Shown: piece by piece, positions 3,705 to 64,000 of the stretch
Numbering within the stretch: the stretch's first letter is position 1
Layout of the letters: each line of letters begins with the position of its first letter
Sequence record: NC_054932.1
Direction: 5' to 3' (one strand)
DNA: 64,000 bases
From: Escherichia phage teqdroes
Notes under the pieces: model-generated
The model's input: the letters and a program-made list of their open reading frames with translations, nothing else
What the model was told of the DNA's origin: nothing
The model's database searches: none
Made by a program: the position numbers and the translations under genes

Positions 3705-4824
3705 TTTTAACCTTAACTGGGTCTATTGTTTCCAGTTTCGTTGCATTAGTGAACATATAAAGATGAGTTACTGAATTATTATTTGATAATTCATGGATAA
3801 CTTCATCAACGTAAAATTCTGTTTTAAATTGGTTTTTACTATCATTAAAAATAATTTTAACACCAGGAGTCAAGTTAAAATTACCGACAGTAGAACATTT
3901 AGCATAGCCGTCATATTGTGCCATAGTTTGAAGACGAATAGCTTCTTCATATCCATTCCTATAAGTCATTTCAGAATAAGCACCTGACCTTGACACTACA
4001 ATAGAGTTTTCGCCCTTTCCTGTAGTAATCATTGGCAGTGAAGAATCTAAAAATGAATGAGCATAGATAGTAGCATTTTTCATTGGGTCACGTTTGTGAG
4101 GATTCGATTTAGTCAACCAAACAAAATCATATGCTAATGGGTATTTTAATTCTTGGACAAATTGACCTATTAAAGATGGCTCACCGACAATCATTGGATA
4201 TGGTTCTTGATTTATCATCATATCATAGTCCATCATGTTAACTCCCATGATGTCTTGCCACACAAATACAAATTTGTCACTTCCCACAGCTAGAGCAACT
4301 TCTCTTACATATGACAAATAGTTTTCAAATGTGCTAGTCCATGGAATATCAGGAACATAAGCATTTATAGCATTTATTGCTGGAGTTAATAATGTGCGAT
4401 CTTGATAAATGACACCAAGCATTTCTTTTATAGATTCACCTGCATCAGGGAAAAATGGTCTACCAAATTTAAGATTTTCTATAGAATGAATAGTTCCCAA
4501 TTCAATAGCAATGATGTTATCGCCTTTTGAATCTACTGACACTGAAAAATGCTTACATCCATAAATTCGTGTTTTAACATTATTAATATCATTTGCATTA
4601 GCTACAGAAATCTGAATTATTTCATTTCCATCCATTTTTGTATGGATGTTTTTAGAATCATAAAACTGCAGCATTCCTTCATTTCGGCCATAAAGAGAAT
4701 CCCGCATAGTTAATGTAGTAATAGTAGCAGCTAATTCAACAAATCTATTATTACTCCAAGCGTCGTAGCTATCAAATAATTTAACGCTGAGATTTGGATA
4801 TCCGGGGCGTTGCAACATACTCAT
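3649..4824 (-). CDS. 27: baseplate hub subunit gp27
   Basis: 391-aa ORF, T4 gp27 length and synteny. Confidence 0.85.
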
Positions 4825-5573
4825 TATTGTTTATCCTTCTCAATCAGTTTTAATACGAATCCGCGCTCAGCAGGAATCATTTTCATTATTGAATTTAAGC
4901 TATAATTACTTTTTACGAGTGTGTGATTAATTTGATAAAAAGTAAATATCTCATCTGGGTTAACTAATAGCTTAAACACGTCTACTATATCAGTGTATTT
5001 TTTAATGTACTTATTACAGCATGACATATGTAGAGTTAAATTAATAGGATTCATTGCATCGAGAATTTGTTCTAATGTTTCTATCTCGATGGCGTCAACG
5101 AGTTCTATTTGACTAGACTCGCTAATTTCCTTCCAATCATACCAAATTTCATCTACTTGAACAGAATGAATATTTTCAGTAATCATCTTTGCTTTATTTT
5201 CATAAAACTCAGAAGGAAACTTTAATTTAATTTTAACATTAGCTACATCAAAAACAGGTTCCTTTAATTCTTTTTGGTATATTTCAAATGGAACTGTCTT
5301 TTCTTTTTTACATTTTGGACATACGAATGTGACTGGTACTTTTGTTTTACCTATTGACCCTACAAATACCTGCAAAAATATAAATGGTTGCCAAGTCTTC
5401 GGATAGTCTCCAAAATAATCATCAATTAAATCAGTAATTATTTCTTTTTGTTCTTGTGGTGACCGATGTTCTATATCGTTTCGAACTAACAAAAAATCTC
5501 GATAATCTTCTACCGTAAATGGTTTAAAACGATGAACACCATCTGGTAATTTACAACGAATAATGTTTGCCAT
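4824..5573 (-). CDS. 51: baseplate hub assembly catalyst gp51
   Basis: 249-aa ORF, T4 gp51 length and synteny; CxxC pairs present. Confidence 0.8.
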
Positions 5574-5624
5574 AGATGCTCCTTTTATTCTATTTATAAA
5601 TATGATAAATAAAGGAGCTAAAAT

Positions 5625-6251
5625 ATGTATGAATACAAATTTGATGTGAGAGTTGGTTCTAAAATAATCAATTGTCGCGCATTCACGCTTAAAGAATATC
5701 TAGAACTTATTACTGCCAAAAATAATGGTTCTGTAGAAGTAATTGTTAAAAAGCTAATCAAAGACTGCACAAATGCAAAAGATTTAAACCGCCAAGAATC
5801 AGAACTATTGTTGATTCATTTATGGGCACATTCTCTCGGTGAAGTTAATCACGAAAACTCCTGGAAGTGCACCTGTGGAACTGAAATATCAACCCATATA
5901 AATCTATTACATACACAAATAGATGCACCAGAAGACCTCTGGTATACACTGGGTGACATTAAAATTAAATTCCGATACCCTAAAATTTTTGATGATAAAA
6001 ATATAGCCCACATGATAGTATCATGTATAGAAACGATTCACGCTAACGGGGAAAGCATTCCAGTTGAAGACTTAAATGAAAAAGAGCTGGAAGATTTATA
6101 TTCTATCATCACAGAGTCAGATATTGTAGCTATAAAAGATATGCTTTTAAAGCCTACTGTTTATTTGGCTGTTCCAATTAAGTGTCCAGAGTGTGGAAAA
6201 ACCCATGCTCACGTAATAAGAGGCCTCAAAGAGTTCTTTGAGTTACTATAA
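5625..6251 (+). CDS. 26: baseplate hub subunit gp26
   Basis: 208-aa ORF divergent from gene 51, as in T4. Confidence 0.8.
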
Positions 6252-7604: not shown

Positions 7605-7847
7605 TTAAAAGCTTTCTTCTACTTCATCGTCTGAATCTTCTAATTCAGCTCTTTTTCCTGCCAAAGCATCTCTCACAGAGATGTCATCAGTATCTTTTAA
7701 TTCAGTTTCTTTGACTCTTTTCTTATAATAAGCTTCAAGTTCTTCTAAACCTTCTAATGTTTGACAAGAGGCAATTTTACCCATAAATTCATCAATAGAA
7801 GCTTCATAAAGAAATTGTTTAAATTCTAGTAACATCTTTTTCTCCAA
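7605..7847 (-). CDS. uvsW.1: UvsW.1 small acidic protein
   Basis: 80-aa ORF immediately downstream of uvsW on the same strand. Confidence 0.7.
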   Translation of the reverse strand: MEKKMLLEFKQFLYEASIDEFMGKIASCQTLEGLEELEAYYKKRVKETELKDTDDISVRDALAGKRAELEDSDDEVEESF

Positions 7848-7860
7848 AGGGCCGAAGCCC

Positions 7861-9372
7861 TTATAAATTAACTGTTTTCATTACGTAATTAAATTTTTCA
7901 TCTGCGTAGCGCTGAATACGATCAATGCCGTGTTTTAAAAGATAGTTCAAATGAACATATTTCTTTTTAGTATTAGCAGATTTTGGCTTAACACCACAAT
8001 CATCTATGAGGTCCCAGACTGTTGCTATTGTCTTAGAACCATGCTTACGTAATACACGACCGATTGTTTGTAATACAATGATTTTTGATTTAACACCGTG
8101 CGCTAAAACAACGTGATGCAGATTTTTAACTGAAATACCAGTAGAAAATACACCATAACTAGCTACTATAATTATTCCTTTACCATTTTCAGCTAAGGTT
8201 TTCATTATATTGCGGGTTTCGGTATCAACTTCCCCTGATACGTAATAAACTTTATCGTATTCATTTTTAATTAAATCGAAAATAGCTTTACCATGTGATA
8301 CATGTTTAAACATGACAAAAGCGTTTTCATCTTTTTGCGCAAGCTTAATAGCTAATTTAGCGATCCATTTATTTCTTTTACTAAGCCCAGTAATAATTTT
8401 TATTTCTTCTTGATAAGTTTTTCCCTTTAATTTAGTAGTGAACTCATCTGGATAGCGAAGAAAAATACTATTAATTTTTAGCTCAGTTACTTGTCCATCT
8501 TCCATTAATTTAGAAGTCGTTACTGGCTTAAATATTTCACCAAACATTCCAACATACTGCATGATATTAGCTTTGCCATCACGTAATGAACCTGATAGAC
8601 CAAATTTAAACATACAGTTATTTAATCCTGATATGATAGATGAAATACTTTTTCCTGTAGCAAGATGGCATTCATCATTCATCATCATTCCAAACTGTGA
8701 GAACCATTCTTTTGGTTGTTTTACTACAGTTTGCCATGTACCAACAACGACTGGTGCATCATTTTTATATTTATCATCTTTTGATGCTCCGCCACCAATT
8801 TTCTTTATCATTGCATGGCTGAATAAACGATAGTCAACGAAGTCATCAGCCATCTGAGTTGTCAGAGCAGTTGTTGGAACAATGATAAGAATTTTACCTT
8901 CATAATTTTCCAAATAATACCGAGCAAGCAAAGCTTGAATTAACGATTTACCAGCGGATGTTGGAAGATTAAGAATTCTACGACGATTAACTAATCCTTC
9001 GAACACTGCATCTTTTTGATACCAGTGTGGTTCAATTCTTTTATTTCCTGAATAGATTTCTAATTTAGAAAGCCATTCATCAAAATCTTTTCTTGATAAT
9101 TCTTCTTTTTCGTTAATTTGTGGGTCAATCCAGGCTTTATAGCCAAAGTTATCACAGAACTTTTTAATTTGCCCGACTAAGCCAAATGGAAGAAGACGAT
9201 TATAATCTAAAAGACGGATTCGTCCATCCCAGTGGCCATATTTGTATTTCGGATTAAAACGATACCCATCAGCTTCAAAGCTAAAGAAATCACGGAGTTC
9301 ATGAAATGTACTTTCTTCACAATCAATTCTCACGTGACTAAAATCATAAAAATGTACTTTAATGTCAGTCAT
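7861..9372 (-). CDS. uvsW: ATP-dependent SF2 helicase UvsW
   Basis: 503-aa ORF; Walker A-like LPTSAGKS, DEAH-like MMNDECH; T4 UvsW length and position. Confidence 0.85.
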   Translation of the reverse strand: MTDIKVHFYDFSHVRIDCEESTFHELRDFFSFEADGYRFNPKYKYGHWDGRIRLLDYNRLLPFGLVGQIKKFCDNFGYKAWIDPQINEKEELSRKDFDEWLSKLEIYSGNKRIEPHWYQKDAVFEGLVNRRRILNLPTSAGKSLIQALLARYYLENYEGKILIIVPTTALTTQMADDFVDYRLFSHAMIKKIGGGASKDDKYKNDAPVVVGTWQTVVKQPKEWFSQFGMMMNDECHLATGKSISSIISGLNNCMFKFGLSGSLRDGKANIMQYVGMFGEIFKPVTTSKLMEDGQVTELKINSIFLRYPDEFTTKLKGKTYQEEIKIITGLSKRNKWIAKLAIKLAQKDENAFVMFKHVSHGKAIFDLIKNEYDKVYYVSGEVDTETRNIMKTLAENGKGIIIVASYGVFSTGISVKNLHHVVLAHGVKSKIIVLQTIGRVLRKHGSKTIATVWDLIDDCGVKPKSANTKKKYVHLNYLLKHGIDRIQRYADEKFNYVMKTVNL

Positions 9373-15807: not shown

Positions 15808-16617
15808 TTAGAAACGAGATGCGACTTTCGCATATACACTTACAATATCTTCTGCACCCTGTGCAGCTTTATCTTCTACAGCTTCAGTGACGAAATTCAG
15901 TCCGGCTGCTTCAGTATCAGGAGTATTTATACTCTCAGTAATAGTGCTTTCATCTTTATTAGATTTCTTCACCATTTCTACGATTGCACTCAATTTACTT
16001 GAGAATGCATCTGAATAATCCATACCTTCGACCAGAGCAGAGACTTTTTCTTTTTGAGACTCAGTCAGATCTTTAGTACTTTCGCTCAATGCCACTTCAC
16101 GCTGCACATAATTGATATATGCGTCACGCTTATTGAGTTCTTCGAACAGACGAGCTGATTCTTCTTTATGTTCTTGCAGCTCTTCTTCCATTTCAGCTAC
16201 AACATCAACCGATTCTTCTGGAACAACAACGTTGTGTTCAACAAAGAGCTCTTTTAATCCACCAAGCATGGATTCAAACAGTTCGGCTTTGATGCCTTTA
16301 TCAACTGCTAATTTATTTTCAGCGAGCCATTCTTTCGCAAGATGGTCAATGAATTTAGAAGCTTGCTCAGCGATTTTCTTCTCAGCTTTTTCTTCGGCTT
16401 CTTCTTTATTTTTTTCTACTTCTTCTTCTGCTTTTTCAGCAATTTTAGCGATATGAGATTCAGCTAATTTAACGGCGTGCTGCTTGACGGTAGCTTCGAA
16501 TACAGTGCCGAAAGTTTCTTTTGCTTCCGGAGAAATATTAACTGATTCGAAAATACTATCAAGAGCAACGGAAGCATCAATTTTCTGCGCTTCGGCAATC
16601 AGTTGTTCTTTAAGCAT
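15808..16617 (-). CDS. 22: prohead core scaffold protein gp22
   Basis: 269-aa Glu/Lys/Ala-rich helical ORF between 21 and 23. Confidence 0.9.
   Translation of the reverse strand: MLKEQLIAEAQKIDASVALDSIFESVNISPEAKETFGTVFEATVKQHAVKLAESHIAKIAEKAEEEVEKNKEEAEEKAEKKIAEQASKFIDHLAKEWLAENKLAVDKGIKAELFESMLGGLKELFVEHNVVVPEESVDVVAEMEEELQEHKEESARLFEELNKRDAYINYVQREVALSESTKDLTESQKEKVSALVEGMDYSDAFSSKLSAIVEMVKKSNKDESTITESINTPDTEAAGLNFVTEAVEDKAAQGAEDIVSVYAKVASRF
15924..15931 (-). promoter_or_regulatory. candidate late promoter for gene 23 (TATAAATACTCC on the minus strand, inside the gene 22 coding region)
   Basis: Exact TATAAATA on the minus strand about 135 nt upstream of the gp23 ATG. Confidence 0.4.
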
Positions 16618-58230: not shown

Positions 58231-58260
58231 GTTTACTTTTCCTCTTGACTGTGGTATAAT
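58231..58260 (+). promoter_or_regulatory. early promoter (GTTTAC ... TGTGGTATAAT)
   Basis: Near-consensus extended -10. Confidence 0.6.
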
Positions 58261-59302: not shown

Positions 59303-59636
59303 AATTTTGGTTTTATGTATAGGATTAATTTCATTTTCTGCGTTAGCAGATACATCATATACTGAAATTAGAGAGTATGTAAACCGTACTGCAGCGGATT
59401 ATTGTGGGAAAAATAAAGCATGCCAAGCTGAATTTGCGCAGAAATTAATATATGCATATAAAGACGGAGAAAGAGATAAATCAAGCAGATACAAAAACGA
59501 TACATTGTTAAAACGATATGCTAAAAAGTGGAATACCTTAGAATGTTCAGTTGCGGAGGAGAAAGATAAAGCCGCTTGTCATTCAATGGTTGACCGTTTA
59601 GTAGATTCTTATAATCGAGGATTGAGTACTAGATGA
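59295..59636 (+). CDS. predicted secreted protein (vs position)
   Basis: 113-aa ORF with signal-peptide-like MTKILVLCIGLISFSALA. Confidence 0.45.
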   Translation: MTKILVLCIGLISFSALADTSYTEIREYVNRTAADYCGKNKACQAEFAQKLIYAYKDGERDKSSRYKNDTLLKRYAKKWNTLECSVAEEKDKAACHSMVDRLVDSYNRGLSTR

Positions 59637-60112
59637 TTGTAAAATATATCAAGGGCGATATTGTCGCCCTATTTCTTCAAGGTAATATTATTGCGCACGG
59701 GTGCAATTGTTTTCATACTATGGGTTCAGGTGTAGCGGGTCAATTAGCAAGAGCCTATCCCAAAATTTTAGAAATAGATAAAACTACTACCGAGTACGGT
59801 TCTCGTGATAAATTAGGCGATATGTCTATTGTTTTTAAACATAATCCTACAGGATTTGGTATATGCTATAACCTGTATACGCAATACGAACCGGGTCCTA
59901 ATCTTGATTATGGTGCTTTAGTAAACTGCATGATAGAATTAAATCTACAGGCAGAAACCCTTTTGTTTAAACCAGTAATTTACATTCCACGCATAGGTTG
60001 TGGTATTGCTGGCGGTGATTGGGATAAGGTTTCTAAATTAATCGACATGTTTACTCCTGATATTGATTTAATAGTGGTGGATTATGAAAGTACATTACCC
60101 GCATCCGTTTGA
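59633..60112 (+). CDS. macro-domain-like protein (possible ADP-ribose binding or hydrolase)
   Basis: 159-aa ORF; AHGCNCFHTMGSGVAGQLARAYP resembles the macro-domain N-x-x-N ... G-x-G-V-A-x-x-[IL] core. Confidence 0.45.
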   Translation: MIVKYIKGDIVALFLQGNIIAHGCNCFHTMGSGVAGQLARAYPKILEIDKTTTEYGSRDKLGDMSIVFKHNPTGFGICYNLYTQYEPGPNLDYGALVNCMIELNLQAETLLFKPVIYIPRIGCGIAGGDWDKVSKLIDMFTPDIDLIVVDYESTLPASV

Positions 60113-60296: not shown

Positions 60297-60499
60297 GCCA
60301 AACTAGTATTCTTAAAAATGCTCATTGTGAAAAGTGTAAATGGCCGGTTGTTTTTGCTTTATGTAATGATGAAATGGCTTGCGATTTCGATTATTGGTGC
60401 TATTGTTCTAATAAAGGATGCATCAATCATAAAGGTGAAGGATTTTATTCAGGATTTTATCCTTATCCTGATTTCGTTAAAGAAGGTAAACCAAAATGA
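60287..60499 (+). CDS. small Cys-rich protein (possible zinc-binding)
   Basis: CEKCKW...CNDEMACDFDYWCYCSNKGC; start 60287 or 60293. Confidence 0.45.
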   Translation: MVMSQTSILKNAHCEKCKWPVVFALCNDEMACDFDYWCYCSNKGCINHKGEGFYSGFYPYPDFVKEGKPK

Positions 60500-60672
60500 A
60501 TGATGATTTAAAATATCAACTATTACGTGAACTCGATGTTTTGATTGAACTTTCTGCACAAAAAGGATTTATAATTGGATCGGGTCAAAAAGACCCCAAC
60601 GGTCATTTAATCGTAGCGGTTATGAATCAGAAACGAGTCATTTTAAAACTTTTGGGGATTAACATACTGTGA
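60496..60672 (+). CDS. hypothetical small protein, 58 aa; not in the supplied ORF track
   Basis: ATG overlaps the previous stop (ATGA). Confidence 0.4.
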   Translation: MNDDLKYQLLRELDVLIELSAQKGFIIGSGQKDPNGHLIVAVMNQKRVILKLLGINIL

Positions 60673-60854
60673 GCCTAAGCAAAGAACAAAAAGATAAATT
60701 GTTTGAGCTTATCCATGAACTTCTAGATGAGCATACAGAAGCAAACACCTTTTATGATGAATACGGCCCGCTATCTCCCGAACAGCAGGAAGAATTTGCT
60801 GATCGGTTTGATAAGAAAGAAAATGAATTAATAGCTTATGTGAATACGCTTTAA
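60669..60854 (+). CDS. small helical protein, member of the ~60-aa paralog family
   Basis: GTG start overlapping the previous stop (GTGA); MSLSKEQKDKLFELIHELL. Confidence 0.4.
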   Translation: MSLSKEQKDKLFELIHELLDEHTEANTFYDEYGPLSPEQQEEFADRFDKKENELIAYVNTL

Positions 60855-60863
60855 GAAGGTGAT

Positions 60864-61445
60864 ATGGCGAGTTTAATTTTTACTTATGCAGCAATGAATG
60901 CTGGAAAATCTGCTTCTCTTTTAACTGCTGCGCATAATTATAAAGAACGTGGAATGAGTGTATTAGTTCTTAAGCCTGCTATTGATACTCGCGATTCTGT
61001 CTGTGAAGTCGTTTCTCGCATTGGAATTAAGCAGGAAGCGAATATTATTACAGATGATATGGATATTTTCGAGTTCTATAAATGGGCTGAAGCACAAAAA
61101 GATATTCATTGCGTATTTGTAGATGAAGCTCAGTTTTTAAAAACTGAACAGGTGCATCAATTGAGCCGAATTGTTGATACATATAATGTTCCTGTTATGG
61201 CTTATGGATTAAGGACTGATTTCGCTGGAAAATTATTTGAAGGTTCTAAAGAACTTTTAGCGATTGCAGATAAACTTATTGAACTAAAAGCAGTTTGTCA
61301 TTGTGGTAAAAAAGCGATTATGACAGCTCGATTAATGGAAGATGGAACACCAGTTAAAGAAGGTAATCAAATCTGTATTGGTGATGAAATTTATGTTTCT
61401 TTGTGTAGAAAACATTGGAATGAATTAACCAAAAAGCTCGGTTAG
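60864..61445 (+). CDS. tk: thymidine kinase
   Basis: 193 aa; P-loop AAMNAGKS; C-terminal CHCGK...C zinc motif. Confidence 0.9.
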   Translation: MASLIFTYAAMNAGKSASLLTAAHNYKERGMSVLVLKPAIDTRDSVCEVVSRIGIKQEANIITDDMDIFEFYKWAEAQKDIHCVFVDEAQFLKTEQVHQLSRIVDTYNVPVMAYGLRTDFAGKLFEGSKELLAIADKLIELKAVCHCGKKAIMTARLMEDGTPVKEGNQICIGDEIYVSLCRKHWNELTKKLG

Positions 61446-61454
61446 TGCAAAAGT

Positions 61455-61462
61455 TATAAATA
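61455..61462 (+). promoter_or_regulatory. late promoter core TATAAATA
   Basis: Exact motif about 25 nt upstream of the ATG at 61488. Confidence 0.45.
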
Positions 61463-61487
61463 GGTTTATCTAACTAAAGGGGTATAT

Positions 61488-61700
61488 ATGCTACAATTAA
61501 CTGAAAAGCAACTTCGCAATCTTACTGTTCTTCAATTAGATGAAATTCGTAGGGAAGTTGGAAATATCATTTCAGCTTTGCGTCGAGAAGTATCACTCAA
61601 CCAATCTCCGGCAGACTATACTAGATTGCGAAATTTTGAAAAATACCTTGATAAAGTTAAGGCCGTGCATCGGCATAAAGTAAATACAGGACAAAAATGA
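61488..61700 (+). CDS. hypothetical small helical protein
   Basis: 70-aa ORF. Confidence 0.5.
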
Positions 61701-61712
61701 TAGGAGGCCTTT

Positions 61713-62006
61713 ATGGCCTTAAAAGCAACGGCACTTTTTGCCATGCTAGGATTGTCATTTGTTTTATCTCCATCGATTGAAGCGAATGTCGATCCTCATT
61801 TTGATAAATTTATGGAATCTGGTATTAGGCACGTTTATATGCTTTTTGAAAATAAAAGCGTAGAATCGTCTGAACAATTCTATAGTTTTATGAGAACGAC
61901 CTATAAAAATGACCCGTGCTCTTCTGATTTTGAATGTATAGAACGAGGCGCGGAGATGGCACAATCATACGCTAGAATTATGAACATTAAATTGGAGACT
62001 GAATGA
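61713..62006 (+). CDS. rI: lysis inhibition regulator rI (periplasmic antiholin)
   Basis: 97 aa with N-terminal signal/anchor MALKATALFAMLGLSFVLSPSIEA. Confidence 0.85.
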   Translation: MALKATALFAMLGLSFVLSPSIEANVDPHFDKFMESGIRHVYMLFENKSVESSEQFYSFMRTTYKNDPCSSDFECIERGAEMAQSYARIMNIKLETE

Positions 62007-62389
62007 AATTCAGCGACTTTTCACAAAGTGGAAAACCTTCAAAGGCAGATGAATACTTAGGTTTATTAATGGCTGCACAAGCTTATTTTCATTCTGCACA
62101 TTTTGAAACTAAAAGTTATGCTAGACACAAAGCATACGATTTTATTTTCTCCGAGTTGCCAGATTTGATTGATAAATTTGGTGAGCAATATTTGGGGTAT
62201 TCTGGTAGAAAATACACACCTTCAATTCCAGATGCCAGTAAACTTCCTACCGACACAATTAAAATGATTGATCGCATACTAGACCAATCTAACAGCATTT
62301 ATAAAGAAATGCCTCCAGCCATTCAAAGCACGATAGATGATATTACTGGAATGTTTTACCAGAGTAAGTATCTTCTTTCCCTCGAATAA
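62003..62389 (+). CDS. hypothetical protein (rI.1 position)
   Basis: 128-aa ORF overlapping the rI stop. Confidence 0.6.
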
Positions 62390-62393
62390 CATT

Positions 62394-62416
62394 AGTCTCC
62401 TTCGGGAGACTTTTTT
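62394..62416 (+). terminator. rho-independent terminator AGTCTCC-UUCG-GGAGACT plus T6
   Basis: Read from sequence. Confidence 0.65.
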
Positions 62417-62426
62417 CATTTTACCG

Positions 62427-62458
62427 GTTTACTTTCCGTCTGAGCCGTGGTACTATAC
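62427..62458 (+). promoter_or_regulatory. early promoter (GTTTAC ... GTGGTACTATAC)
   Basis: Read from sequence. Confidence 0.5.
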
Positions 62459-62484
62459 AACCATCGGATAAAGAGGAGAACATC

Positions 62485-62673
62485 ATGAAAATTGAAGCAC
62501 TTAATCAAGAAGGAAATATCTACGTCATCATTAATGGTGATTTTTTCGTCGACATGGATGAAGTTACTAGTGAAGAACTTGTAGAACTTCTTAAGAAACG
62601 TTATAATATGTGTGATGAAGTTGCAACTCACATGGCGTGTGCAATATTCTCTCTTTCATATGTGGTGGAATAA
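62485..62673 (+). CDS. hypothetical small protein
   Basis: 62-aa ORF. Confidence 0.45.
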
Positions 62674-62876
62674 TGATTAGTATCGAACAAGCGGATAAGA
62701 TTAAAGAATTGGTAGCTTTAATTCGTAAAGCAGACGAGGAACTTAGTGACTTTGCTTGGTTTTCGTCAGGCATTGCAAATAAAGGCATTGATGAACTTGA
62801 AGCTAAAGTTGATAATGCTTTAGAAGCGTTAGATATGTTTCTTGATGAAATTATCGATCATAATACGAGAGTTTAA
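62673..62876 (+). CDS. small helical protein, paralog family
   Basis: Start [13 protein letters not shown] overlapping the previous stop. Confidence 0.45.
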   Translation: MISIEQADKIKELVALIRKADEELSDFAWFSSGIANKGIDELEAKVDNALEALDMFLDEIIDHNTRV

Positions 62877-62878
62877 GT

Positions 62879-63073
62879 ATGCTAACACGTGAACAGTTTG
62901 AAAAAATCATTAAATTAGCACGTGATATTGAAATAGATTCATACCAATTAGCAGTTGAGCATTGTGAAGGATATTCATACGACGGTATAGAAGCAGCTAA
63001 AAGAGATTTGGATAAATCCAAAGCTAAGTTAGTTCAATATCTTGAAATGATTAGGTGGAATAATGAAAACTGA
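62879..63073 (+). CDS. small helical protein, paralog family
   Basis: MLTREQFEKIIKLARDIE... Confidence 0.45.
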   Translation: MLTREQFEKIIKLARDIEIDSYQLAVEHCEGYSYDGIEAAKRDLDKSKAKLVQYLEMIRWNNEN

Positions 63074-63236
63074 AAAGCAGATGTTTTTAATGAAGCTAAT
63101 TGAAGAATATGCTAATGCAGTTTCTGACTATGAGTATTCTGCTCGGGAAAGAGGTACGGCTTTCGCTAAAGAAGAATTGAAAATCATGGTTGATGCTCAT
63201 ACAAAGCTTCAGAATTTTATCGAAAACGTCATTTAA
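63063..63236 (+). CDS. small helical protein, 57 aa, paralog family; not in the supplied ORF track
   Basis: MKTEKQMFLMKLIEEYANAV...; ATG inside the previous ORF's last codons. Confidence 0.4.
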   Translation: MKTEKQMFLMKLIEEYANAVSDYEYSARERGTAFAKEELKIMVDAHTKLQNFIENVI

Positions 63237-63238
63237 TG

Positions 63239-63270
63239 GTTTACAAGTTGGCAAGGTTATGGTATAGTAA
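63239..63270 (+). promoter_or_regulatory. early promoter (GTTTAC ... TGGTATAGTAA) with imperfect flanking inverted repeat
   Basis: Read from sequence. Confidence 0.5.
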
Positions 63271-63400
63271 TCTTGTCAACTGCCAAGGAGAAGAGAATGA
63301 AAGTTTTGTTTGTTGTGTATGTGATGATTCAATATAATTACCCAATGTTTACTTATAATTTGGTAAACAACATTATTGATATGATTCAGAGGAGTATGTA

Positions 63401-63586
63401 ATGACAAGTGAGCAGGCTTTTAAATTAAGAGAATTAATTGAGACGTATAGTAAAGCTGTTCATACATCAACAATTATTGATGAATCAGCTTTCTCCGGAC
63501 ATGCTAACAAGATTAAATACAAAACTCTTATGGAAGAAGCTAAAGTAAATCTTGATTCTTATATTGAAACTTTAATTGGTAAATAA
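63401..63586 (+). CDS. small helical protein, paralog family
   Basis: MTSEQAFKLRELIETYSKAV... Confidence 0.45.
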   Translation: MTSEQAFKLRELIETYSKAVHTSTIIDESAFSGHANKIKYKTLMEEAKVNLDSYIETLIGK

Positions 63587-63587
63587 T

Positions 63588-64000
63588 ATGAAAGCTGTAA
63601 TTGAAACAACTGATTTGTTCGGTGACCTAGTTATCGAAAAACGCGGTAATGTATACGTTCTGACGCAGGAAGACGATAGTATTACTATTCTTCCTATGGA
63701 ACTGGCTGCGATTTTATCTTATGCTCCCTCAGGAGTTACCGGTGTAACTAATATTACAGGTGACCTCCAAGTTCGTTTTTATCGTGGCCTTTACGGCGGT
63801 AATATTGAAACTGAATTTATGTGTCTTTCTATCAACAATTGGGCAACATTCGTTGCCAAGGTGAAAGAATTCTTAGAATCTGAAACAGTTGAAACACCCG
63901 AAAAGGATAAACTTCAATGGGCTAAAGATCGCGGTGCTAACATTATTAATCCAGTAGCTGCAAACTATACTACGACTTTGGATGTCAAGACTTCTTATGA
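63588..64000 (+). CDS. hypothetical protein, 5' part (continues beyond the window end)
   Basis: ORF from ATG 63588 is open to the window end. Confidence 0.5.
   Translation, partial: MKAVIETTDLFGDLVIEKRGNVYVLTQEDDSITILPMELAAILSYAPSGVTGVTNITGDLQVRFYRGLYGGNIETEFMCLSINNWATFVAKVKEFLESETVETPEKDKLQWAKDRGANIINPVAANYTTTLDVKTSY

Follow-up and report, generated by a model that had tools for sequence, protein, structure and literature searches.

Why does a T4-like phage keep five versions of a protein of about 60 residues around its genes tk and rI, and do they speak for an arms race with its host? The question is raised by Escherichia phage teqdroes (NC_054932.1), of which we analyzed a stretch of 64,000 nucleotides (nt), hereafter called the window. 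An initial annotation, made from the letters alone, had listed five small open reading frames (ORFs) with a common N-terminal pattern, regarded them as paralogues of a tiny early protein, and taken their repeated duplication as a sign of an arms-race function, such as inhibition of a host factor or defence protein. The window belongs to a Tequatrovirus. Its segment 60400–63700 shares 99.2% identity with Escherichia phage AndreasVesalius (Bas42), and at least 80% of that segment is covered by roughly 450 T4-like genomes.

The five ORFs are real genes, and profile comparisons place them in a single family as paralogues that diverged long ago. The family is not new, being already catalogued as Pfam DUF7438. 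The arms-race reading of it is plausible. With a confidence that falls somewhat short of even, we lean toward binding-based accessory proteins in which a conserved base would serve as scaffold (and possible dimer interface), a variable tip would give specificity, and the partner would most plausibly be a host factor or defence protein.

Five paralogues of one family

All five ORFs lie on the plus strand, which is the direction of early transcription in T4, and carry the N-terminal pattern that had drawn attention to them. Copy 1 (60669–60854, 61 residues, GTG start, phrog_653) is the Tk.2 orthologue and is 90% identical to the protein named Tk.2 of phage JS10. Copy 2 (62673–62876, 67 residues), copy 3 (62879–63073, 64 residues), and copy 4 (63063–63236, 57 residues, phrog_2758) are the orthologues of T4 MobD.4, MobD.3, and MobD.2a, respectively, following the annotation of T2 (for copy 3 also that of T4). 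MobD.4 has 67 residues in the window and 60 in T4 and T2 owing to an indel in the hairpin loop. Copy 5 (63401–63586, 61 residues, phrog_4859) is without a counterpart in T4 or T2, and the similarity of T4 to the window stops near 63404, at the start of this copy. Only one of the five, copy 4, is shorter than 60 residues, which corrects the earlier count of two.

All five match the Pfam profile PF24219 (DUF7438) over its full length (positions 1 to 56 or 57 of 57) with 57.0 to 69.6 bits, where the curated gathering score is 25 bits; the E-values for copies 1 to 5 are 2.9e-19, 2.5e-15, 2.7e-17, 1.8e-15, and 1.4e-15. Compared pairwise with BLASTP, the copies are related weakly (25–34% identity). 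Because the Pfam profile may contain these same T4 proteins, a leave-one-orthogroup-out test was run, in which the hidden Markov model (HMM) used to score a copy was made from family members sharing less than 40% identity with that copy, and 2000 composition-preserving shuffles served as controls. The copies reach 22.1–40.6 bits, the best shuffles 9.3–13.6 bits, and none of the 2000 shuffles attains the observed score. The similarity thus goes beyond composition, and the paralogy put forward in the initial annotation stands.

Within the family, profile–profile comparison of narrow orthogroup alignments separates two subgroups. The first holds Tk.2, Tk.1, MobD.4, and MobD.3, mostly linked at 51–93% probability (25% for the pair Tk.2 and MobD.4), and the second holds MobD.2a and copy 5 (mutual link at E 7e-4); directly compared, the two are joined weakly. 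The division by PHROGs into phrog_653, 2758, and 4859 follows these lines and thereby hides the paralogy. At the DNA level, neither a search for repeats nor an alignment of the genes revealed any similarity beyond short chance-level matches, which argues that the duplications are not recent.

The family HMM, run over all six frames, detects these five copies and no others in the window, and adds no confident one from the remaining 104 kilobases (kb) of the Bas42 genome. By the same HMM, the neighboring 58-residue ORF at 60496, rI.1, mobD.5, and mobD.2 are not members. The T4 set of DUF7438 proteins (Tk.1, Tk.2, MobD.4, MobD.3, and MobD.2a) is the same family as the five of the window; the window has copy 5 in place of Tk.1, with nothing different in kind. 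The name 'DUF7438 family protein' is already in use at NCBI. In the literature searched, no publication gives DUF7438 a function, and the search by gene name found a genome-reduction paper only (PMC9825161).

A predicted hairpin with a variable tip

AlphaFold2, supplied with an alignment of 44 sequences, gives an antiparallel two-helix hairpin (helices at residues 3–25 and 33–59) with a predicted local distance difference test score (pLDDT) of 91.8 and a predicted template modeling score of 0.73, so the helical hairpin that the initial annotation had envisaged is predicted with confidence. Each DUF7438 copy is predicted to be a soluble antiparallel hairpin of about 60 residues. Hydrophobic positions conserved throughout the family show a heptad-like spacing in both helices. 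Under standard helix-capping rules, the [ST]-x-E-Q part of the N-terminal motif may be taken as a helix N-cap, and the part after it as the first turns of the core.

Conservation is distributed unevenly along the hairpin. The orthogroups of Tk.2 and MobD.4 are almost invariant in approximately residues 1–20 and the last 13 or so (column entropy near zero), and most substitutions and the indels fall in approximately residues 20–46, a high-entropy stretch that runs from the last part of helix 1 across the loop into the first part of helix 2. Sequence searches of PDB, PADLOC, and NCBIfam returned nothing meaningful for the copies, and none of the five matches an enzyme or defence family in Pfam, PADLOC, or NCBIfam. 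With some 60 residues, two helices, and no enzyme-family match, catalysis is unlikely. The DUF7438 proteins would rather be accessory early proteins that act by stoichiometric binding of another protein. The nearly invariant base of the hairpin, where the N-terminal [ST]-x-E-Q cap with K-L-x-E-L-I would pack on the C-terminal L-x-x-[YF]-[IL]-E-x-L, may be the common scaffold and probably also a surface for self-association. The variable tip, formed by the loop and the adjoining parts of both helices, would then provide each paralogue with a partner of its own.

The fold itself is generic, and none of its structural relatives is informative. A small phage inhibitor of host regulators, Aqs1 of Pseudomonas phage DMS3 (PDB 6v7u), which dimerizes and binds LasR, could serve as a comparison. 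Its sequence identity is 11%, and it comes from another phage lineage and another host, and is not matched by the family profile among PDB chains. Rop, the ColE1 RNA one modulator, has in common with the family a predicted antiparallel hairpin of about 60 residues. One could imagine that DUF7438 dimers assemble into four-helix bundles as Rop does, bind RNA, and so adjust how stable early transcripts are or how well they are translated, but we give this idea very little credence: the Foldseek hits (PDB 1nkd, 1rpo, and 7kae) have an E-value of about 1.3 and reflect a generic fold, no Rop match appears in a Pfam scan at E of at most 1 or in a PDB profile search at E of at most 10, and two strongly acidic members would be unfavorable for RNA binding.

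These two members are copy 1, which is very acidic (net charge -10, isoelectric point 4.3), and copy 2 (net charge -9), whereas copies 3–5 are near neutral (-3 to -1). Such a charge in 61–67 residues, at an isoelectric point of about 4.3, might mean that Tk.2 and MobD.4 imitate nucleic acids and, like Ocr or Arn, obstruct host proteins that bind DNA, such as restriction enzymes or other nucleases; the near-neutral members would then have another role. Both are expressed early, and T4-like phages have several inhibitors of this kind in their early regions (e.g., Arn, annotated in Bas42). Critically speaking, however, the acidity is not family-wide, the Pfam and PDB searches gave no sequence match to known mimics, and a 60-residue hairpin offers a short charged surface unless it is oligomeric. 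We consider mimicry improbable.

One further T4 family deserves mention here. The PseT.1 proteins (PF26888) share with DUF7438 an N-terminal M-x-T-x-EQ-x-x-x-[LI]-K-G-L-I and a C-terminal L-H-x-Y-I-x-S-L-V pattern, occur in the same phages, and are likewise predicted as two-helix hairpins (helices 4–32 and 40–75, pLDDT 94.7). They differ in their length of 72–76 residues, in their locus next to pseT, and in the absence of a DUF7438 match in Pfam. Aligned with hhalign, the two families yield a probability of 37.8% (E 3.4e-4, 61 columns), and the family HMM gives E 0.013. PseT.1 may be a distant extra branch of DUF7438. The orthologue in Bas42, bas42_0057, has 76 residues and lies outside the window (16303–16530 on the minus strand of the Bas42 locus).

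Family range and copy-number variation

Among 5.8 billion proteins, a word-indexed search yielded 120 matches. Each shares at least 54% identity with one of the five copies, and PF24219 is found on all of them except a few truncated fragments. An exhaustive HMMER search of 1.84 billion representatives yielded 32 clusters, mostly of about 60 residues, and every named cluster stems from a T4-like phage (Tequatrovirus, Mosigvirus, Kanagawavirus, Enterobacter phage IME523, Citrobacter phage Merlin, and similar). The exceptions are truncated entries, a 117-residue fusion, and one 936-residue repeat protein that looks spurious. As far as these searches reach, DUF7438 is confined to enterobacterial T4-like phages.

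The fusion, metagenomic member P0137 (Logan contig SRR27947026_8630, 6001–6354, 117 residues), combines an N-terminal DUF7438 hairpin with an unannotated C-terminal extension of about 57 residues. Of the multidomain members seen, it is the only one without the obvious marks of a frameshift artefact. It and P0135, another distant metagenomic member, are found among strings of small unannotated phage-like ORFs, which for P0137 all point in one direction.

Copy number varies across T4-like genomes, from zero to five per genus-level locus. In a survey of 6 kb on each side of tk with one phage per genus, five copies are present in T4, T2, and the window, two to three in Mosigvirus and Dhakavirus, and one in Jiaodavirus; within the same distance, Karamvirus ZX13, Tegunavirus, Muldoonvirus, Slopekvirus, Krischvirus, Pseudotevenvirus, and Tulanevirus have none. 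T2 and T4 reach their five with Tk.1 (Pfam E 4.6e-15), which the window does not have. A tblastn census of about 500 Tequatrovirus-level records (tk at 95% identity or more) finds copy 5 in 191 records and Tk.1 also in 191. Three copies are present in HY03, and vB_EcoM_112, which has Tk.1 and also matches the region from mobD.4 to copy 5 over its full length, probably has six, so the range in Tequatrovirus runs from three to probably six.

Two relatives preserve traces of copy 5. Shigella phage pSs-1 (locus 3981–4058) has a decayed copy 5 with an in-frame internal deletion, leaving a 19-residue remnant, MTSEQAFKLRELIETLIGE; the deletion may be bounded by the short ELIET/IETLI repeat found at both ends of the gene. 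In Mosigvirus moha (locus 7804–7896), a 31-residue stop-to-stop fragment ends in 22 residues that match the C-terminal helix of the copy-5 type.

Besides presence and absence, alleles vary as well. The Tk.2 of the window is 54% identical to that of T4 and 70–77% identical to the Dhakavirus type, so two alleles exist, while tk is 100% identical between the window and T4. Divergent Tk.2 beside identical tk points to allele exchange by recombination. The junction between tk.2 and tk is occupied by Tk.1 in T4 and T2 and by a 9-nt spacer in the window. In Dhakavirus VR5, a free-standing gene for a 'site-specific intron-like DNA endonuclease' (VR5_105; locus 5276–6013) is located between tk.2 and tk, and Aeromonas phage Aes508 encodes an HNH homing endonuclease just upstream of tk. 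This junction has the appearance of a hotspot for insertions. Another homing endonuclease gene at the variable junctions is mobD, which in T4 lies just downstream.

Dispensability and selection

What happens when a member is lost? The five T4 members are classed as 'Not Fit' in CRISPRi-ART (PMC11879866), and a viable T4 deletion spans nrdC.11 to mobD.3 (PMC9825161). In the HIDEN-SEQ transposon sequencing study (bioRxiv 10.1101/2025.11.20.689424), the five are 'Non-essential', with insertions tolerated at 15/16 to 20/20 sites. Such dispensability invites the view that the copies are near-neutral passengers of a recombination-prone early region, persisting by linkage and homing-endonuclease-driven exchange with little contribution to fitness. 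The missing phenotype in three genome-wide T4 studies, the decayed remnants and deletions in close relatives, and the homing endonuclease genes at variable junctions (VR5_105 between tk.2 and tk, and mobD downstream in T4) are all in line with it.

Selection tells a different story. Over seven Tequatrovirus loci, the pooled Nei–Gojobori ratio of nonsynonymous to synonymous substitution rates (dN/dS) is 0.11 for Tk.2 (same-allele comparisons only), 0.19 for MobD.4, 0.13 for MobD.3, and 0.07 for MobD.2a, at a synonymous divergence of 0.12–0.22. Copies 1–4, each taken as a whole gene, are clearly under purifying selection. Such ratios at substantial synonymous divergence speak against passengers, as do the orthogroups kept across genera, the hydrophobic core positions conserved family-wide, and the detection of the proteins in T4; we give the passenger view a low probability. 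The family is dispensable for growth on laboratory E. coli, yet under purifying selection.

We prefer to read the DUF7438 proteins as binding-based accessory proteins, whose likeliest partners would be host factors or host defence proteins, making them modules of host takeover or counter-defence. This last step is the least supported of the mechanism. It draws on dispensability in the laboratory, turnover at the population level, and the gene next door: tk.4, which according to the HIDEN-SEQ study encodes AdfM, a macrodomain protein and anti-DarTG2 factor in T4 (bioRxiv 10.1101/2025.11.20.689424). Its orthologue lies at 59633–60112 on the plus strand of the window. Among Tequatroviruses, tk.4 also comes in two alleles, 57–58% identical to each other, while the nearby tk is 99–100% identical. 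Elsewhere in the T4 genome, nrdC.1 is reported in the same study as an anti-Septu factor (bioRxiv 10.1101/2025.11.20.689424).

Several observations weigh against a host-directed role. No family member is among the main-text anti-defence hits of HIDEN-SEQ, be it in the DarTG2 condition or on clinical isolates, and two comparison tables give q = 1 for the members they cover (bioRxiv 10.1101/2025.11.20.689424); one of these tables covers all five members and the other Tk.1 and Tk.2, and one shows rIIA and rIIB as depleted. The dN/dS values, computed per whole gene, denote purifying and not diversifying selection. Orthogroups common to several genera, together with the lack of DNA-level similarity, imply old duplications and no rapidly expanding array. 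Both this age and the purifying selection across each gene weaken the premise of repeated duplication in the initial annotation. Charge is not uniform within the family either. Homing endonuclease genes sit at the presence/absence junctions of relatives, and the mosaicism could therefore arise without host-driven selection. Finally, none of the DUF7438 members has a reported partner, toxicity, or defence phenotype.

A bolder version of the preferred reading may nonetheless be formulated, in which DUF7438 would be a modular array of inhibitors for counter-defence or host takeover, with a conserved base as common scaffold or dimer interface and, in each paralogue, a hypervariable tip directed at a different host defence or host factor, where redundancy would hide the paralogues in single-gene T4 screens and PseT.1 would be a distant branch. 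We regard this version as rather unlikely.

Gene order and expression

The copies are embedded in a dense string of small genes. The order in the window is regB, vs.1, vs, tk.4, ORFs of the tk.3 type, the 58-residue ORF, copy 1, and tk, followed by rI.1, rI, rI.-1, mobD.5, copies 2, 3, and 4, mobD.2, copy 5, and a MobD.1-like gene. As stated in the initial annotation, several copies overlap the stop codon of a neighbor: the GTG start of copy 1 overlaps the stop of the upstream 58-residue ORF (GTGA), copies 2 and 5 have one base in common with the preceding stop codon (TAATG), and copy 4 overlaps copy 3 by 11 nt. We considered whether a copy and the small ORF that it overlaps form an obligatory two-gene module, and rejected this since the pairings are not conserved. 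T4 has no homologue of the 58-residue ORF here, tk.3 directly preceding tk.2, and T2 and T4 retain mobD.2 without copy 5.

The 58-residue ORF itself (60496–60672, plus strand, phrog_3452) is dimorphic among Tequatroviruses (61–63% versus 97% identity). The gene after copy 5 (63588–64000, plus strand) runs off the window and encodes a MobD.1-type protein that matches Pfam PF24449 (T4_y05I_N, 'y05I-like putative transcription factor N-terminal domain') with E 1.2e-31.

Four matches to the T4 early-promoter pattern (GTTTAC-N14-nTGGTAnnnT) lie on the plus strand of the window, against an expectation of 0.01. One match (62427–62456, GTTTAC-N14-gtggTACTAT), annotated as a T4 early promoter in the closely related phage SA20RB, heads mobD.5 and copies 2, 3, and 4. 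A second one (63239–63268, GTTTAC-N14-atggTATAGT) heads mobD.2 and copy 5, and a third (58231–58260) lies upstream of the string from regB, vs.1, vs, and tk.4 to copy 1 and tk; all three are on the plus strand. The match at 58231–58260 is the nearest one upstream of copy 1, which is probably read from it.

An intrinsic-terminator-like hairpin with a T-run follows rI.-1 (62394–62411, plus strand; annotated as a rho-independent terminator in SA20RB) and divides the tk–rI unit from that of mobD.5 and copies 2–4. Between tk and rI.1 lies a T4 late-promoter box, TATAAATA (61455–61462, plus strand), as annotated in SA20RB; the unit of rI.1, rI, and rI.-1 may thus also be read late.

Expression data for the T4 orthologues agree with the promoters. 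MobD.3 and MobD.4 are classed as 'early RNA, early protein', Tk.1 and Tk.2 as 'early RNA, middle protein', and mobD.2a has early RNA without a protein call (PMC9697503 supplements). The description of the family as early proteins is thus supported by the upstream promoters, by early RNA for the orthologues, and by protein for MobD.3, MobD.4, Tk.1, and Tk.2.

The surroundings raise another possibility, namely that the proteins serve processes of the phage itself, as adaptors or assembly factors of early complexes (e.g., of the nucleotide-precursor machinery by tk) or as modulators of lysis timing by rI. Every genus that has copies carries them immediately before tk and after rI/rI.-1, translational coupling to the neighbors is frequent, and both the steady purifying selection and the old orthogroups would suit such a role. 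On the other hand, genera in which no copy turned up within 6 kb still have tk, rI, and rI.-1, loss of single copies is common among close relatives, and knock-down or disruption in T4 comes without fitness cost. Taken together, we judge a phage-internal role to be rather unlikely.

Labels carried by the family

Some of the names attached to these genes in databases are misleading. In several GenBank records, copy 5 (phrog_4859) is labeled as 'helicase loader'. It has 61 residues, and DUF7438 is its only match above threshold, whereas gp59 has about 217 residues; moreover, the 'replisome assembly protein' of this genome is a separate 654-nt gene elsewhere, beside the gene for the single-stranded DNA-binding protein, where gp59 lies. 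The label looks like an annotation error. Likewise, RefSeq names orthologues of MobD.4 and MobD.3 'molybdopterin-guanine dinucleotide biosynthesis protein MobD', and no such Pfam or NCBIfam domain is found in them. This label appears to derive from the T4 gene names mobD.x, mobD being the neighboring homing endonuclease gene.

A different kind of problem concerns mobD.2a. The reference T4 table used by CRISPRi-ART lists it with 117 nt (38 residues), and the tail of the corresponding protein (P0130) is divergent after residue 33. In T4 'wild' (KJ477684; locus 4632–4814), the T4D genome of HIDEN-SEQ (174 nt), T2, and the window, the gene is intact with 57 residues. Reference T4 mobD.2a probably carries a frameshift or sequencing error, to judge from this comparison of sequences.

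Significance for T4-like phages

T4 is the best-studied lytic phage, and roughly half of its genes are still without a known function. DUF7438, with five copies, is among its few multicopy families of small proteins. For now, the value of our findings lies mainly in cleaning up: three PHROG groups are brought under one Pfam family, and two propagated misannotations are flagged. For those who wish to probe the function of the family, the result favors combined deletions over single knock-outs. Should the proteins turn out to be inhibitors of host factors or defences whose specificity resides in the tip, they would represent a compact and easily engineered inhibitor scaffold, and they would help to explain differences in host range among therapeutic T4-like phages.

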